DNA of 64,000 nt from an uncultured Gemmatimonadales bacterium (lineage in GTDB: Bacteria; Gemmatimonadota; Gemmatimonadetes; Longimicrobiales; Gaopeijiaceae). The position numbers were made by a program. How positions within the stretch are numbered: the stretch's first letter is position 1; each line of letters starts with the position of its first letter. Positions 40,801 to 46,800 of this stretch are shown here, one piece after another. The DNA is taken from positions 128,001 through 192,000 of the forward strand of contig CAWELD010000010.1 of assembly GCA_963809895.1 (NCBI GenBank), written 5' to 3'.

Positions 40801-43800
40801 TGGGACTGGGTGCGACCCCCTGGCTCGTACTGGGTCGCACCGTCGCGGCTCTGGTAGTGGGGGCTGCGCTATTGGTGGGGCTCTTCCAGGGCTTCATGCG
40901 CCTCACCGGCGTGCGCGAGAGCCCGGTCATGGAGCGGCTGTTGCCACGCACCGGGCCGGAGCGCCGCGTATTCGCGGTCCTTTCGGTGGTGGCGGGTCTG
41001 GGCGAGGAGGTCGTCTACCGGGGTTATCTCCTGGCCCTGCTGACGCCGGTTCTGGGCGGCCCCTGGACGGCGGCCGGGGCCAGCAGCGTGGCCTTCGGGA
41101 TCCTCCACGCCTACCAGGGGCCGCTGGGCATCGTGCGTACGGCCGCGTTGGGATTCATGTTCGCCGCGTCTCTGGTGTTGACGGGCACGCTGTGGCCCGC
41201 GGTCGTCGTCCACACGCTGGTGGACCTGGTGGGCGGGCTCTGGGAACCTCCGCACCTCGCGGGGCGTCGGGGGTAGGCGCATTCGGGAGGCTTGCAGAAA
41301 CGTCTCGGCCCGTCGAACAGTAGTGATAGCAGGTCGACGGAGGGAGCAGACGTGATTCTTCAATGCAACTACGAGGAGCTCCAGGCACTGCGCCAGGGTG
41401 CCGACGCGGTGTTGCGCGCCGGTGAGCCGAATCCGTGCGCCGTGGCGGCACCTCCGGCGGAGCGAGCCCAGGTGGGTGCACTGCTGCCGCAGCTGGAGGG
41501 CGACGTCTCGGTCTCGACCCTGGCCGAGCAGGAAGAGGTCGAGTCCGCCGTGCGCACCATCGTCGCCTGCCTCCGAGCCGAGATGGACGCGGCGGTCGTG
41601 GCCGCCCATCCTGCCGACGAGGTCGCGGTTGCCGCCTACTTCGACTACGCCCACGCGCTGGTCGTGCTGGCGCGCCTCGAGGAGATGGGGGATCACATGC
41701 GGGCCCTCATCGAGATCGTCACCGGCACGACGGCCACCCGGGCCATCGCCGCCTCCTTCGCCTTTCCCGACTGACACGGTCTGGACGGGCGGCACCGTTC
41801 CACCCCTTCGACGCCCTTCCGGAAGGCCCTCGCGGCAATGCCTGATCGCATCGATGCGCTGCGCCGCCTGCTGGAGCGGCGTCCGGACGACCCGCGCCTC
41901 CGCTTCGGGCTGGCCCTCGAGTATCTCGGTGCCGAGCGCTGGCAGGATGCCGTGGACGAGCTCCAGGCCTATCTTGCGTCGGCAGAGGACGAGGGCAATG
42001 CCTGGGGCCGCCTGGGCGACGCGCTCTTCCGCCTCGGACGAGACGACGAGGCCCGTGAGGCCTACCGCAAGGGGATCGCGGAGGCGGAGCGCCACGGGCA
42101 TCCCACCATGGCCGAGGAGTTCAGGGATGTCCTGGCGAATCGTCACCACGACGGGGGGACGGGATCGACGTGAGCGCGGGAACCACCGAGCGCAAGGCCA
42201 GCTTCGACGCGGAGGCGCTTCCACACCTGGAGGCTGTGTACCGGTTCGCCCTACGGTTGTCGGGGTCGCCCGACGCCGCCGAAGATCTGGTTCAGGAGAC
42301 CTTCCTGCGGGCCTGGCGAGCCTGGGACCAGTACACCGAGGGAACCCGGGCGAAGAGCTGGCTCTTTACTATCTGTCGGAACGTGTTTCTCCGGCAGCGG
42401 GAGCGAGGTCAGCGGCACCAGCGGATTCTCGAGGCCGAGGCGCCCCGATCGGACACCGGTGGCGTGGGCGGCGACGTGGTGAATCCCCTGTGGGTATCGG
42501 CGGCCGACGAGGATCCCGAGGGGACCTTCTTTTCGCAAATCGTCGATGACACCGTACTGGAGGCCATCGACCGCTTGCCGGAGGAATACCGCAGCGCGGT
42601 GGTCCTGTCCGATGTGGAAGGCCTGTCCTACGCGGAGGTCGCGCAGGTGATGGACGTGCCTGTGGGGACGGTGAAGAGCCGTCTCTTCAGGGGCCGCCGG
42701 GAGTTGCAGAAGGTGTTGTACGACTACGCGGTGGAGATGGGCTACATCGCTCCGCGAGATGCCCCTGCGGGTGAACCCCGTGAAGGGGCGGGTGAGGAAG
42801 CATGATCTTCGACAGGTTGAAGCGCTGGCTCGGCGGAGGCTCGCCCGGGGACAACGGGACGTCGCACGATGAAGGCCACGGGGGCGACTCCGGCGACATG
42901 ATCACGTGCCACGAGGCGCTCGAGCGGATCTACGAGTACATGGATGGCGAGCTCGAAGGGGTGACGGCCGAGCAGGTGGAAGCCCACTTCCGGGTGTGCG
43001 CGCGCTGCTTCCCTCACCTGAAGCTGGAGCGCACGTTCCGGGCTCGCGTGCAGGAGGCCATGACCCGGCCCGGAATCCCCCCCGATCTGCGCAGCCGGGT
43101 ACTGGAGACGCTGGCCCGGGAGACTCCCGGGACCTGAGCGCCCTGCAGCGTCTTTCGCTCCCCTGCGTCGCCGGCCGAATCGCGCCGGTGGCGCGTTTTT
43201 TCATGCCCCCGACCCTGCCTTGCGGGGCCCGTCCGAATCATAGAGGATAGGCGGGCCGCCCCCCTTGGAGCGCCCCGACACACCAGCAGGCTCCCTGCAG
43301 CACGCACCCGCACAGGAGAAGGAATGGCGACGGCCCAGAAGAGGGAGAGGATCCTGCCGCGCCTCATCGAGGACGAAATGCGAGAGTCCTTCCTGGACTA
43401 CTCCATGAGCGTCATCGTCCAGCGGGCCCTCCCCGACGTGAGGGACGGCCTCAAGCCCGTCCACCGGCGCATTCTGTACGCCATGCACGAGCTCGGGCTC
43501 ACCCCGGAACGGGCCTACAAGAAGTGCGCGACGGTGGTCGGCGACGTGCTGGGCAAGTACCATCCGCACGGCGACTCGGCCGTCTATGACGCCCTGGTGC
43601 GCATGGTGCAGGATTTCTCGCTGCGTTATCCCCTGGTGGACGGCCAGGGGAACTTCGGTTCCATCGACGGCGACTCCGCGGCCGCCTACCGCTATACCGA
43701 GGCTCGCCTGTCCGCCCTGGCCACGGACCTCCTGGCCGACATCGACAAAGACACCGTCGACTGGCTGCCCAACTTCGACAACCGGCTCGAGGAGCCGGCG

Positions 43801-46800
43801 GTCCTGCCGGGCAGGGTCCCGAACCTCCTGGTCAACGGGAGCAGTGGCATCGCGGTGGGGATGAGCACCAACATCCCCCCGCACAACCTCCGCGAGGTGG
43901 CCGCCGGCGTGAAGCTGCTGGCCATCGACCCGGACTGCTCCATCGACGACCTCATGCGCCACATTCCGGGCCCGGACTTTCCCACCGGGGCCTTCATCGT
44001 GGGCGACGAGGGCATCCGCGACATGTACCACACGGGGCGGGGGCGCATCGTCATGCGGGCCCGCATCGTCAAGGAGGCCATGCGCGGGGGCAAGGAGCAG
44101 CTGGTGGTCACCGAGCTGCCCTACGGCGTGAACAAGTCCAAGATCATCGAGCAGATCGCCGATCTGGCCAAGCGCGGCAAGGCCGACGACATCTCCGACA
44201 TCCGTGACGAGTCGGACCGCGACGGCATCCGTCTGGTCATCGAGCTGAAGCGGGGCGCCAAGGTCACCAACGTGCTCGCTCTCCTTTTCCGGCGCACGTA
44301 CCTGCAGAGCACCTTCGGCGCCATCATGCTGGCGTTGGATCACGGCCAGCCCCGGGAGCTACCCCTCAAGCAGATCCTGGAGCACTACCGGGACCACCGC
44401 ATCGAGGTCATCCAGCGGCGCTCCCGCCACGAGCTGGAGAAGGCCGAGGCCGAGCGGCACATCGTCGAGGGATTGCTGGTGGCGCTCCAGCACATCGACG
44501 AGGTGATCCGGATCATTCGCGGATCGAAGGACCGGCCCGAGGCCAGCACCAGGCTGCAGGACCGCTTCGGGCTGAGCGAGGTCCAGTCCGACGCCATCCT
44601 CAACATGCGCCTGGGCAAGCTCACCCGCCTCGAGCAGGGCGAGCTCAAGGCGCGACTCGAGGAGCTGCGCGCCCTCATCGGGGATCTGCGCGGCATCCTG
44701 GACTCCGAGGAGCGCCAGATCGAGGTGCTGCTGGAGGAGCTGAGCGAGGTGGTTGAGCGCTACGGGGACGCGCGGCGCACGGCCATCCTGAAGGATGCGG
44801 AGGAGGACGTCGCGGAGGTCGAGGAGGAGCTCGCCGACGAAGACGCGGTGGTCACGGTGAGCCACGAGGGCTTCGTGAAGCGCATGCCCATGCACCTCTA
44901 CCGCCGCCGGGTGTCGTCCGGTAAGGCGCTGGCCGGGATGGAGCGCTACGAGGACGATTACATCGAGCGCATCTTCGTGGCCCGCACCACGGGCTGGATC
45001 CTGTCCTTCACGGCCGGTGGCCAGTGCCACTTCCTGCCCGTCATGGACCTGCCCGAGAGCGGCCGGGCCAGCCGGGGCCAGTCGGTCTACTCTCTGCTGG
45101 ACGGGGCGGACCGAGCGGACCGGATCGTGGCCATGCTTCCGGTCGAGACGCTGGAAGACGACGGCCGCGTGGTGGTCTTCGTCTCGCGAGGCGGCCTGGT
45201 GAAGCGCACCTCGCTGGGCGAGTTCACCAACCCCCGCTCCTCTGGCATCATCGCCGCCGGGGTGAAGGACGACGACCACATCCGTGAGGTGGCGATCTCC
45301 GACGGCACGGCCGAGATCATGCTCCTGTCACGCGATGGCCGCGCCATCCGGTTTCCCGAGGAGGACGTGCCCGTCCAGGGGCGGACGGCCCAGGGCGTGA
45401 AGGGCATCGACCTGCGAGACGACGATCACGTGGTGGGTGTGTTGATGGTGCGGCGCGAGGCGTCGGTGCTCACCGTCACCGAGGACGGCGCGGGCAAGCG
45501 CACGCCGGTATCCGACTTCCCGTTGCAGAAGCGGGGTGGGCTGGGCACCCTGGCGGTGCCCACGTCGGGCAAGGTGGTGCCGCTGGTGGCGGCGCTCGAG
45601 GTGGTGGAGGCCGACGAGGTCATGCTGGTCACCGCCGGTGGGCAGGTGTCCGCCGTACGGGTCGAGCGCGCCCCGCTGCAGGGCCGGCGCACGCAGGGAA
45701 AGCGTCTGGTCAAGGTGGCCTCCGGAGACCGGGTGGTGGAGGTCACCCGTTCCGCGGGAGGCACGCCGGAACGGTCGGAGACCCCGGAGCCGGTGGAGTC
45801 GGGGGCCGGCGACGGAGACGGAGACGGTCGCGGCCAGCTCGATCTTCTGGGCGAGTGAGCGGGCGTTCGCTCAGCCGCCGCCCGAGGCCGGTGAGCGCAG
45901 GAGCTCCATGACGGGGCCGTGAAGGGCCTCGTTGCTGGAGATCCCGGAGCCACCGTGGATGGTGGCGGTGCCGCGCGCGTCGGTGAAGCGGCCGCCGGCT
46001 TCGCTGAGGATGGTGAGAAGCGGGGCGGCGTCCCACGCCGACAGCTCCGGGTCCACCATCACTTCGGCGCGCCCGGTGGCGACCAGGGCGTGGCCGTAGC
46101 AGTCGCCCCAGGTGCGCGACAGGTTGGCGGTCTGCACCAGGCGGAGCCAGCCGTCCGCCAGGGGGCCCGAGCGGATGCGGGGCTCGTCGGTGGTCAGCAC
46201 CAGTGCCTCCTTCAGGTCGCCGACCCGTGAGACCCGACACGGCACGCCGTTCCACGTGCACCCCAGCCCATGGCCGGCGGCCACCGTCTCGCGCAGAGCG
46301 GGGAAGTGCGCCACGCCCACTCTGGGCTCCCCCTCCACCTCGACGCCGATGAGAACGCCGTAGAGAGGCACGCCGCGCATGAAGGAGCGGGTGCCGTCGA
46401 TGGGATCCAGGATCCAGCGCACCGAGGCGCCCTCCCGGACCGAGCCGTACTCTTCACCGAGGATCGCGTGATCGGGCCAGCGCTCCTCGATGCGTCGGCG
46501 CAGCAGGGCTTCGGCTTCGCGGTCGGCCCGGGTGACGGGACTGCCGTCGCCCTTGGCCTCGTGCTCCACCAGCCCGCCGAAGTGACGCAGCGTCACCGCG
46601 CCGGCCTCGTGAGCGAATGCGACGGCCGCGTCCAGGAGGGCCGGGATCACCGAGAGGCGCGGCCGGAGTAGAGGTCCTGGTCGGCGGTGCGCAGGAGATC
46701 GTCGCCGGTGCGCATGCGCACGGGGTCGAACTGGGCCGCACCGCTGCTCACGGTCACGCCGTGGGGCGCGAGCACGGGATCCCCCTCGACACGCTCGCAT

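Follow-up and report, generated by a model that had tools for sequence, protein, structure and literature searches.

A GyrA paralogue without the blade-1 GyrA-box in Gemmatimonadota: a possible topoisomerase IV-like enzyme built on a shared GyrB

What role is there for a second A subunit in a bacterium that has a single GyrB-type subunit? The question is raised by gyrA2 (P0001), which lies at 43324..45858 on the + strand of the window, the whole 64,000-nucleotide stretch of an uncultured Gemmatimonadales genome that was analysed. Translation of the window gives an intact open reading frame of 844 aa with matches to PF03989 and to PF00521, the latter at 529 bits over positions 1-431. Its alignment with the canonical 870-aa paralogue, here termed GyrA1, gives 54% identity across 802 aa, as an earlier note on this DNA had stated. 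That note had also counted two GyrA-type genes, one GyrB-type gene and no ParE, and the count holds. Profile searches of this genome return two PF00521 (A-type) matches and one PF00204 (B-type) match, and a tblastn search with GyrB over the genome returns GyrB itself, the next-best match having an E value of 0.11. The Toprim search yields no further type IIA B subunit in this genome, its other four matches being a pair of type IA topoisomerases plus open frames 621 and 268 aa in length; a second type IA enzyme could decatenate DNA too. A TP6A_N search of this genome for topoisomerase VI gives no match. Upstream of gyrA2, members of the genus carry an ECF sigma gene paired with an anti-sigma gene, an arrangement that is not conserved past the genus. 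Between the anti-sigma gene and gyrA2 there is a terminator-like hairpin followed by a T-run (43164..43205, +); one such site is seen where 0.9 would be expected by chance, and it therefore hints only weakly that gyrA2 may be a separate transcription unit.

The genome is 95% complete and lies in 11 contigs, so the argument that there is only one B subunit leans on relatives, closed genomes among them. At least two PF00521 matches occur in 59 of the 61 genomes sampled from the order; of the two that fall short, G056 carries a second C-terminal domain where one of its contigs begins. Exactly one PF00204 match occurs in 60 of the 61, G038 having a second at a contig end. These tallies take in two unpublished genomes, G002 and G030, and stand at 57/59 for the A subunit and 58/59 for the B subunit when both are left aside. 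Each of the 11 genomes of the order that lie in a single contig shows two A subunits with one B, in keeping with the earlier tally through the order. The idea of a duplication restricted to the order Longimicrobiales has to be given up: outside it, in two further families of the class, one genome of f6 (G108) and four of f7 (G117, G131, G136 and G140) hold a full-length pair of copies in which one is box-less, each of the five with one B subunit, and P0160 of Gemmatimonas phototrophica falls in the box-less clade in the tree. Most of the phylum nevertheless lacks such a protein, 95 of the 108 genomes sampled outside the order having one A match. At least 119 full-length relatives of GyrA2 are 71-84% identical to it, and in at least five families both copies persist as separate, separately evolving orthologue sets.

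By family profile, GyrA2 is a GyrA. It passes the gyrA equivalogs (NF004043, 1053 against a cut-off of 902; TIGR01063, 1023 against 877), on which GyrA1 scores 1242 and 1195, and it stays under the cut-offs of the parC equivalogs (TIGR01061, 670 against 813; TIGR01062, 550 against 629). The single B subunit is of the gyrB type (TIGR01059, 1000 against 882) and fails the parE equivalogs. In a tree built with IQ-TREE, all the box-less copies come together as a single clade (SH-aLRT 100), sister to the canonical GyrAs of the class and nested among the GyrAs of the Gemmatimonadota with support of 99 and 98. Smaller trees have the same shape, with a nesting support of 96 in the tree that includes cyanobacterial copies. 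Since GyrA2 lies inside the GyrA clade of the phylum, gyrA2 stems from an old duplication of gyrA within the phylum. Descent as a ParC orthologue is ruled out by this nesting, in trees that held no named ParC sequence and to that extent limit the test.

The catalytic Arg-Tyr pair, R123-Y124 (43690..43695, +), is read directly from the sequence within an 11-residue segment, and the RYTE motif is found in 120/120 GyrA2 orthologues; together with the many closely similar full-length relatives, this points to an active enzyme that is under selection. The equivalent of the QRDR, 15 residues long (residues 80-94; 43561..43605, +), aligns with that of GyrA1 as being of the same type and is therefore without a resistance-like signature. 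Divergence between the paralogues is unevenly spread: identity is 90% in the N-terminal arm and WHD, 46.5% in the coiled-coil/C-gate segment (the dimer contact) and 40.5% in the C-terminal domain. Orthologous GyrAs of equal overall identity share 68-72% in the arm and WHD, and 46-49% in the C-terminal domain.

An active GyrA2 would have to use GyrB, because there is no other B subunit here or in closed relatives. A complex model predicts that the N-terminal arm (residues 8-31; 43345..43416, +) contacts the Toprim/tail region of GyrB. At the predicted interface, GyrA2 and GyrA1 are identical in 25 of 30 positions; for outgroup GyrAs equally diverged overall, the figure is 15-21 of 30. The model of GyrB 400-644 with GyrA2 1-520 scores 0.81, the best control 0.00. 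Of 157 solved complexes, 116 attain the mark that it passes, as do 2 of 215 mismatched pairs; the model was built on our own alignments, and solved gyrase complexes may explain the pass. Across runs, at least 92% of the contacts agree and the partner pLDDT is at least 86. From the interface model and this conservation we infer that GyrA2 binds GyrB. The earlier note had proposed two enzymes sharing one GyrB: the absence of another B subunit from the searches, the conserved arm and a model that passes its controls speak for that reading, and the part of it that made the duplication a trait of the order alone falls away.

The C-terminal domain (residues ~505-812; 44836..45759, +) is predicted to be a six-bladed beta-pinwheel (AlphaFold model m60e9a7e111ba, pLDDT 88, pTM 0.86). 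Six blades had been claimed for both paralogues; Pfam GyrA_C (PF03989) finds six repeats in GyrA1 but four in GyrA2, for which the six come from the model. In Foldseek comparisons, with TM scores normalised to the target, the domain reaches 0.90-0.95 to GyrA C-terminal domains, 0.84 to Geobacillus ParC (1wp5), 0.77 to E. coli ParC (1zvt) and 0.75 to Aquifex 3no0, and is thus closer to GyrA domains than to E. coli ParC; the TM values span 0.84-0.95 for GyrA domains, 0.84-0.85 for 1wp5 and 0.66-0.75 for 3no0, which matches at 54 bits. Net charge of the domain is -2 in GyrA2 and +2 in GyrA1, a small gap, and in only 12 of 15 pairs, which are not independent of one another, does it fall below that of GyrA1. 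At the blade-1 GyrA-box site (residues 529-535; 44908..44928, +), pairwise alignment and a view of the column place RVSSGKA where GyrA1 has QRRGGRG, so that only two of seven positions are retained or similar. The box is indeed replaced, as had been claimed from the reading RRVSSGK, which covers that site with an offset of one residue. QxRGGxG occurs at this site in 0/120 GyrA2 orthologues; 118/120 have RR[VLIT]x[SA]G[KR], in a loop whose pLDDT is below 50 in the model, and the f6 and f7 copies have a four-residue deletion here and no basic residues. A GyrA-box-like QKRGGLG is retained in blade 5 (residues 735-741; 45526..45546, +), where a motif count finds Q[KNR]RGGxG in 119/120 orthologues and where canonical copies keep the equivalent site too. 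The blade-1 replacement loop, so widely conserved and still basic, is not degenerate, an observation that counts against a loss of wrapping; combined with the GyrA-like pinwheel and the blade-5 box, it makes some wrapping and supercoiling by GyrA2 possible.

Our preferred explanation, to which we give a probability of about 0.6, is that GyrA2 and GyrB form a topoisomerase IV-like enzyme that relaxes and decatenates DNA. In the gyrA duplicate, the DNA-cleaving core and the arm that binds GyrB would have been preserved, while the DNA-wrapping domain was remodelled. With the one GyrB of the cell, dimers of GyrA2 would make up a type IIA topoisomerase of A2B2 form that works alongside gyrase (GyrA1 with GyrB). 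Without the blade-1 GyrA-box, such an enzyme would not form the positive DNA wrap needed for negative supercoiling; being deficient in wrapping, it would relax and decatenate in an ATP-dependent manner. This expected activity draws on the diverged blade-1 box, on published GyrA-box mutants and on the Aquifex enzyme. The literature describes how mutation of the GyrA-box or deletion of the C-terminal domain turns gyrase into a topoisomerase IV-like enzyme. It also describes E. coli GyrA combined with Aquifex ParE as supercoiling, so the activity would not be dictated by the B subunit. Besides the conserved loop, the GyrA-like pinwheel and the blade-5 box, points that weigh against this explanation are the small charge gap between the C-terminal domains, the many genomes of the phylum with a single A match and the second type IA topoisomerase, which might decatenate as well. 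We propose that GyrA2-GyrB may be a topoisomerase IV by function and not by ancestry.

GyrA2 and GyrB could instead be a second true gyrase, whose variant blade-1 loop alters set point, processivity or regulation. The conserved, basic character of that loop (RR[VLI]x[SA]GK), a six-bladed domain nearest to those of GyrA, scores above the gyrA cut-offs and the ECF sigma/anti-sigma pair upstream in the genus would all suit such an enzyme, and the canonical cyanobacterial GyrA reads QSRATRG, which suggests that the box tolerates variation. We nevertheless think this unlikely: little of the box survives in GyrA2, copies of the same clade in f6 and f7 have lost four of its residues together with every basic one, and the ECF pair is not conserved outside the genus. 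In reviews, E. coli box mutants are reported to lose supercoiling. Very improbable, in our judgement, are mixed dimers of GyrA1 and GyrA2 that with GyrB would make an asymmetric enzyme of one wrapping and one non-wrapping C-terminal domain. The 90% identity of the paralogues in the DNA-gate region would permit such pairing and the same GyrB would serve both subunits, but the coiled-coil/C-gate dimer contact has diverged to less than half identity and the two orthologue sets have been evolving apart in at least five families.

Some antibiotic producers use second gyrase subunits for self-resistance, and GyrA2 might likewise be a spare or resistant target that guards against a gyrase poison or toxin. 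Its QRDR is of the sensitive type, like that of GyrA1, no producer or immunity genes lie near gyrA2, the copy is kept through whole orders, and a resistant spare would be expected to retain the GyrA-box; these points leave the idea a very slim chance. We give almost no credence to a dedicated ParE-like partner that was missed through an assembly gap or divergence. The incompleteness and fragmentation of this assembly would allow for one, but one PF00204 match stands beside two A subunits in each of the order's 11 single-contig genomes, and neither tblastn with GyrB nor the Toprim search brings up another type IIA B subunit in this genome.

If GyrA2-GyrB is the relaxing and decatenating enzyme that we favour, its C-terminal end may bear on where it works. 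Comparison of orthologues delimits a low-complexity tail (45760..45834, +), a linker from blade 6 to a terminal motif. Among the 103 orthologues with both anchors its length runs from 17 to 93 aa, with a median of 25, and G/A/E/P/D residues abound in it. The motif, QLDLL (residues 838-842; 45835..45849, +), ends two residues from the C-terminus and agrees at four of five positions with the beta-clamp-binding consensus QL(S/D)LF, as given in PMC9690074. A strict QLDLL-type motif lies within the last 15 aa of 110/120 box-less orthologues and is found in 0/150 GyrA-family representatives and 0/37 canonical copies; shuffled tails yield it at 1.1%, for a pattern that was picked after the tails had been viewed. 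The resemblance is a new observation and makes QLDLL a candidate clamp-binding motif. It prompts the tentative suggestion, for which we claim well under even odds, that GyrA2-GyrB is a clamp-tethered decatenase whose QLDLL, at the end of a flexible tail, docks to sliding clamps left behind the replication fork. If so, a single ATPase subunit would be shared by a free gyrase that works ahead of the fork and by an unlinking enzyme held on the clamps in its wake.

Among known systems, ParC of E. coli and Bacillus is, like GyrA2, an A subunit of a type IIA enzyme that lacks the GyrA-box in blade 1; the ParC role in relaxation and decatenation is that expected of GyrA2, whose six-bladed domain resembles the Geobacillus ParC structure. 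Unlike ParC, GyrA2 nests among the GyrAs of its phylum, scores below the parC cut-offs and has no ParE partner. The chimeric topoisomerase IV of Aquifex aeolicus (Tretter, Lerman and Berger 2010, as cited in PMC8216471 and PMC11302465) is described in those accounts as a topoisomerase IV on biochemical evidence. Like GyrA2-GyrB it is said to pair a GyrB-type partner with a subunit that has a gyrase-like core and lacks a canonical GyrA-box in its C-terminal domain. There it is the sole type IIA enzyme, whereas here a canonical GyrA coexists and GyrB would be shared; the C-terminal domain of GyrA2 is also much less like 3no0 than like GyrA domains. E. coli GyrA-box mutants (Kramlinger and Hiasa 2006, as cited) are described as losing wrapping and supercoiling and acting as a topoisomerase IV-like enzyme with the same GyrB. 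They are laboratory constructs, whereas GyrA2 is a paralogue that occurs naturally, has long been conserved and carries a new loop that is itself conserved.

The two-A, one-B layout is not unique to this lineage, and its recurrence, which the earlier note does not mention, speaks for the reading that we prefer. Cyanobacterial genomes have two GyrA-type genes and one gyrB, the second copy being box-less in 5/5, and for Synechocystis Sll1941 (sll1941) the authors speculate that GyrB is shared (PMC6560206, PMC9825172). In the tree both cyanobacterial copies cluster together, away from both Gemmatimonadota copies, so their box-less copy arose by a separate duplication; it stops at blade 6, without the tail or terminal motif of GyrA2. 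Were the clamp reading true, the two duplications would mean that topoisomerase IV-like enzymes arose repeatedly from gyrase by way of the A subunit alone. Most Gemmatimonadota, with one GyrA and one GyrB and with consensus blade-1 and blade-5 boxes in GyrA, resemble Mycobacterium tuberculosis, whose gyrase is described in a review as a single type IIA enzyme that performs both jobs. Unlike that compromise enzyme, the lineage studied here would have split the work over two A subunits.

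The gyrA2 gene (window 43324–45858, + strand) is an uninterrupted open reading frame encoding an 844-aa protein, GyrA2 (P0001); its start codon is credible because the N-terminus of the protein agrees with the orthologue consensus. GyrA2 contains a type IIA cleavage core (PF00521, 529 bits), matches to the GyrA C-terminal repeats, the catalytic pair R123-Y124 and a QRDR of the quinolone-sensitive type. It scores above the NCBI gyrA equivalog cut-offs (NF004043, 1053 versus 902; TIGR01063, 1023 versus 877) and below both parC equivalog cut-offs. The same genome, which comprises 11 contigs and is 95% complete, encodes the canonical subunit GyrA1 (870 aa), which is 54% identical to GyrA2 over 802 aa and has the higher gyrA-model scores. 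GyrB (644 aa) lies above the gyrB equivalog cut-off and below both parE equivalogs. Across the whole genome there are two matches to PF00521 and one to PF00204, and a tblastn search of the genome with GyrB found no second GyrB-type gene, the next match after GyrB itself having an E value of 0.11. Of the remaining four Toprim matches, two belong to type IA topoisomerases and two to open frames (621 and 268 aa), and no A subunit of topo VI was found in a search of the genome.

Directly upstream of gyrA2 and on the same strand lie an ECF sigma factor gene (window 42170–42805) and, overlapping it, a zf-HC2 anti-sigma gene (window 42802–43137). This pair is found 5′ of gyrA2 only in G049, a genome of the same genus, and is absent in seven other relatives; an Rce1-like gene is found upstream of gyrA2 in other relatives. 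An operon linking gyrA2 to a partner gene was rejected, given that the sigma/anti-sigma pair is genus-limited and that no B-type gene is adjacent. Contigs of metatranscriptome library X8 match the interior of gyrA2 exactly (44091–44314 and 44387–44536) and match neighbouring genes too, but DNA carry-over is possible and assembled contigs cannot demonstrate transcription. As DNA sequencing runs contained no more than 0.31 of the sampled words, no habitat is proposed.

The two A subunits differ at the GyrA-box. In a pairwise alignment this region reads YRSQRRGGRGLQGM in GyrA1, whereas GyrA2 has RVSSGKA at the seven box positions, with one glycine retained and one arginine replaced by lysine. At this site, 118 of the 120 closest relatives of GyrA2 have RR[VLIT]x[SA]G[KR] and none has QxRGGxG. 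Where both copies were examined (15 genomes), one copy carries a canonical-type box, Q(R/A/K)RGGRG, in 14 genomes, and the other copy is without a GyrA-box in all 15; the canonical copy of G052 has a degenerate box, HHRGGKG. Both GyrA copies of G052, a small closed genome, are on long branches (L037 and L038). Box-less copies of families f1–f3 have RRVSSGK, RRLASGK, RGAKRGK and similar sequences at the box site, and those of families f6 and f7 have a four-residue deletion there and no basic residues. The blade-1 loop of GyrA2 has thus been exchanged for a new conserved sequence and is not the product of simple decay. The earlier note's inventory of two A subunits and one B subunit, and its description of one paralogue as box-less, are both borne out by these counts.

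Gyrase is converted into a topo IV-like enzyme by mutation of the GyrA-box or deletion of the C-terminal domain, according to the available text of reviews, and we regard a topo IV-like enzyme formed by GyrA2 and the shared GyrB as the most likely mechanism, with a probability of about 0.6. The main rival, that the same two proteins form a second gyrase with altered properties, seems rather unlikely. The model of GyrA2 residues 496–815 has six blades and a pLDDT of 88, with the box loop disordered. Its closest counterparts in sequence and fold are GyrA C-terminal domains (170–220 bits, TM 0.84–0.95); Geobacillus ParC (1wp5) is less close (113 bits, TM 0.85), and Aquifex 3no0 and E. coli ParC are much less close in both respects. 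The box-like motif of blade 5, QKRGGLG, is retained in 119 of the 120 closest relatives, and in M. tuberculosis gyrase the blade-5 box affects decatenation, as a review states in its accessible portion. Among 15 pairs of box-less and canonical copies, which are not independent, the net charge of the domain is lower in the box-less copy in 12 and higher in two, and one pair shows no difference. Single-copy GyrAs of the class (L064–L070 and L079–L082; families f4, f5 and f8) have a consensus box, QRRGGKG or QKRGGKG, in each of blades 1 and 5; the same review portion describes boxes in both blades likewise in M. tuberculosis, which is without topo IV.

A topo IV-like enzyme of GyrA2 and GyrB requires that the one B subunit binds both A subunits. 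In the genome under study the paralogues are 90% identical over residues 9–130, 59% in the tower, 46.5% in the coiled coil and C-gate and 40.5% in the C-terminal domain, as against 68–72% for residues 9–130 and 46–49% for the C-terminal domain in GyrAs from other phyla of equal overall identity to GyrA1. A complex model of GyrB 400–644 with GyrA2 1–520 scored 0.81 (best of three controls, 0.00). Among solved complexes 116 of 157 came up to this mark, and among mismatched pairs 2 of 215. Because alignments of our own were used and gyrase complexes have already been solved, the pass may only reflect likeness to those complexes. The runs showed at least 92% contact agreement and a partner pLDDT of at least 86. 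The predicted contact residues of GyrA2 are 8–16, 18–31, 81–82, 151–152 and 178–180; of 30 contact positions, 25 are identical between GyrA1 and GyrA2 here, 20–27 in the other 14 pairs and 15–21 in outgroup GyrAs. In f7, lineage-specific changes in the arm are common to both paralogues and GyrB differs in the contacting stretch, a single anecdotal case.

The ancestry of GyrA2 was examined with IQ-TREE (LG+C20 PMSF, 73 rows, with 20 of the 150 representatives included and the truncated L047 left out). All Gemmatimonadota sequences fall in one clade (SH-aLRT 99), within which the box-less copies form a single clade (SH-aLRT 100) that includes the representatives P0121, P0123 and P0160, the last a named Gemmatimonas phototrophica protein. 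Sister to the box-less clade are the canonical GyrAs of the class (99), and below these come the branches of the remaining classes of the phylum. In an AU test (36 rows, LG+G4), holding the copies of two-copy lineages together was not rejected (p-AU 0.10), a result compatible with duplication either before or after the class split. Whichever timing holds, GyrA2 derives from a duplication of gyrA and is no orthologue of ParC. It has evolved faster than GyrA1, most strongly in the C-terminal domain. Gene conversion was considered as a source of the N-terminal identity; there is no sign of recent conversion, because identity between GyrA1 and GyrA2 in this segment is similar within genomes (90%) and across genomes (86–89%).

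The order Longimicrobiales was sampled with 20 genomes from each of three families and the genome under study. At least two PF00521 matches occur in 59 of these 61 genomes; the exceptions are G056, where a contig begins with a second C-terminal domain, and G018 (350 contigs), with one A gene only. Exactly one PF00204 match occurs in 60 of the 61, G038 having a second at a contig end. Without the unpublished G002 and G030 these tallies become 57/59 and 58/59. Each of the 11 single-contig genomes of the order carries two A genes and a single B gene. Of 121 genomes sampled across the phylum, among them the unpublished G002 and G116, 108 are from outside the order; of these 108, 95 have one PF00521 match, four have none, four have fragments of one gene and five have two full-length copies. 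These five, G108 (f6) and G117, G131, G136 and G140 (f7), each with one PF00204 match, mean that the duplication is not confined to the order; the taxonomic limit set by the earlier note thus falls, while its gene inventory and box state stand. No orthologue of P0160 was found in 101 genomes of f5, its presumed family (including the unpublished G174, G194 and G195), where 92 have one match and nine have none; the full-length matches are canonical GyrAs, being about 48–53% identical.

G152 (f7; 3 contigs, 96% complete) shows only the box-less copy with PF00521 and PF03989 (G152:C3:1841838-1843937, L061); two genomes of its genus, G117 and G136, carry both. Either an assembly gap hides the canonical gyrA of G152, or the organism is without canonical GyrA. 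In several f3 assemblies (G015:C48, G057:C209 and others; L118 and L119) the two GyrA copies each break off at Pfam positions of approximately 102–148. Inteins were rejected as the cause, as the pieces stop at contig ends in the two loci fetched, and the cuts resemble breaks made in assembly within a stretch of about 90% identity between the paralogues. In three f7 genomes 9–10 kb separate the single gyrB from the box-less gyrA, the two genes being on opposite strands (G117:C1:3238567-3249156, G136:C1:2147962-2158415 and G131:C1:207916-217691), and in Nostoc and Anabaena (G250 and G251) the distance is 7–8 kb; the canonical gyrA does not show this loose linkage.

After a tail rich in Gly and Asp, GyrA2 closes with GQLDLLGE, a feature absent from the earlier note. 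At a C-terminus, QL(S/D)LF is the bacterial clamp-binding consensus in the portion available of a review (PMC9690074), whose table of bacterial clamp partners, as seen there, lists no type II topoisomerase; the partners of E. coli topo IV named in the accessible part of another review are MukBEF and SeqA. Of 120 orthologues, 110 have a strict pattern of the clamp-binding type within their C-terminal 15 residues, and nine of the other ten have a near variant, QSDLF for example. The strict pattern is found in 0/150 GyrA-family representatives, 0/37 canonical copies and 1.1% of shuffled tails. A looser pattern, written post hoc with the data already known, matches 14 of 17 box-less copies, with each of the five families represented, none of 36 canonical copies and five of 150 representatives, two of these from the box-less clade. 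The motif lies 1–9 residues from the C-terminus, behind a low-complexity linker of 17–93 aa. Box-less copies of f2 (L044 of G005, P0121) are about 1020–1060 aa long with a C-terminal extension of about 200 aa, and P0121 despite this ends in LDLFG. In the genome under study no clamp-type motif was found at the C-termini of DinB-like and MutS proteins. The second type IA topoisomerase (779 aa; L120:691-3030, − strand; G000 contig C3) ends in four Q-x-x-L-x-x-L helix-like repeats (e.g. SQIELLQRLL and KQLQLIRSLA); QLIDLL near its end, being one of the four, was rejected as a terminal motif. The candidate clamp-like motif is the most novel lead here. If it binds the sliding clamp, it would provide a new route by which a bacterial type II topoisomerase reaches the replisome; the reviews, in their available parts, list no recruitment of this kind.

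Annotation pipelines label both GyrA1 and GyrA2 'DNA gyrase subunit A', and owing to this shared label such lineages are scored as gyrase-only, probably wrongly. Biochemistry is feasible, as the named matches include the cultured Gaopeijia maritima, a Longimicrobium species and Gemmatimonas phototrophica. A literature search found no paper on the two GyrAs of Gemmatimonadota. Related arrangements are described, in the accessible text of the sources, for Aquifex, whose box-less 'GyrA' is a topo IV with a GyrB-type subunit (PMC8216471, PMC11302465) and whose ParE supercoils with E. coli GyrA (reviews), and for Synechocystis, which in addition to GyrA Slr0417 and GyrB Sll2005 has Sll1941, described in two papers as another GyrA or as ParC-like; one of these papers suggests that GyrB works with both A proteins (PMC6560206, PMC9825172). 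In all five cyanobacterial genomes checked (Nostoc linckia NIES-25, Anabaena azotica SJ-1, Sphaerothrix gracilis, a Microcoleus and a Pseudanabaena), PF00521 is matched twice and PF00204 once, with QSRATRG or QNRATRG at the box in one A copy and nothing comparable in the other. The box of these canonical copies (L247–L251) departs from the consensus Q(R/K)RGG(R/K)G. In a joint tree (LG+G4, quick search) the cyanobacterial copies form one clade (100) and the Gemmatimonadota copies another (96), and because each group's copies stay together, the two box-less lineages arose separately. Whether topo IV-like enzymes have a single or multiple origin from gyrase is unclear according to reviews, as far as their available text goes (PMC2647321). 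In Gemmatimonadota and in cyanobacteria, separately, a gyrA duplicate lost the GyrA-box and no B subunit was duplicated, which supports repeated origins of topo IV-like enzymes; the same pattern also supports the C-terminal domain of the A subunit alone setting the activity. The Gemmatimonadota arrangement is a new and independent variant of a layout that had been noticed, without tests, in cyanobacteria.
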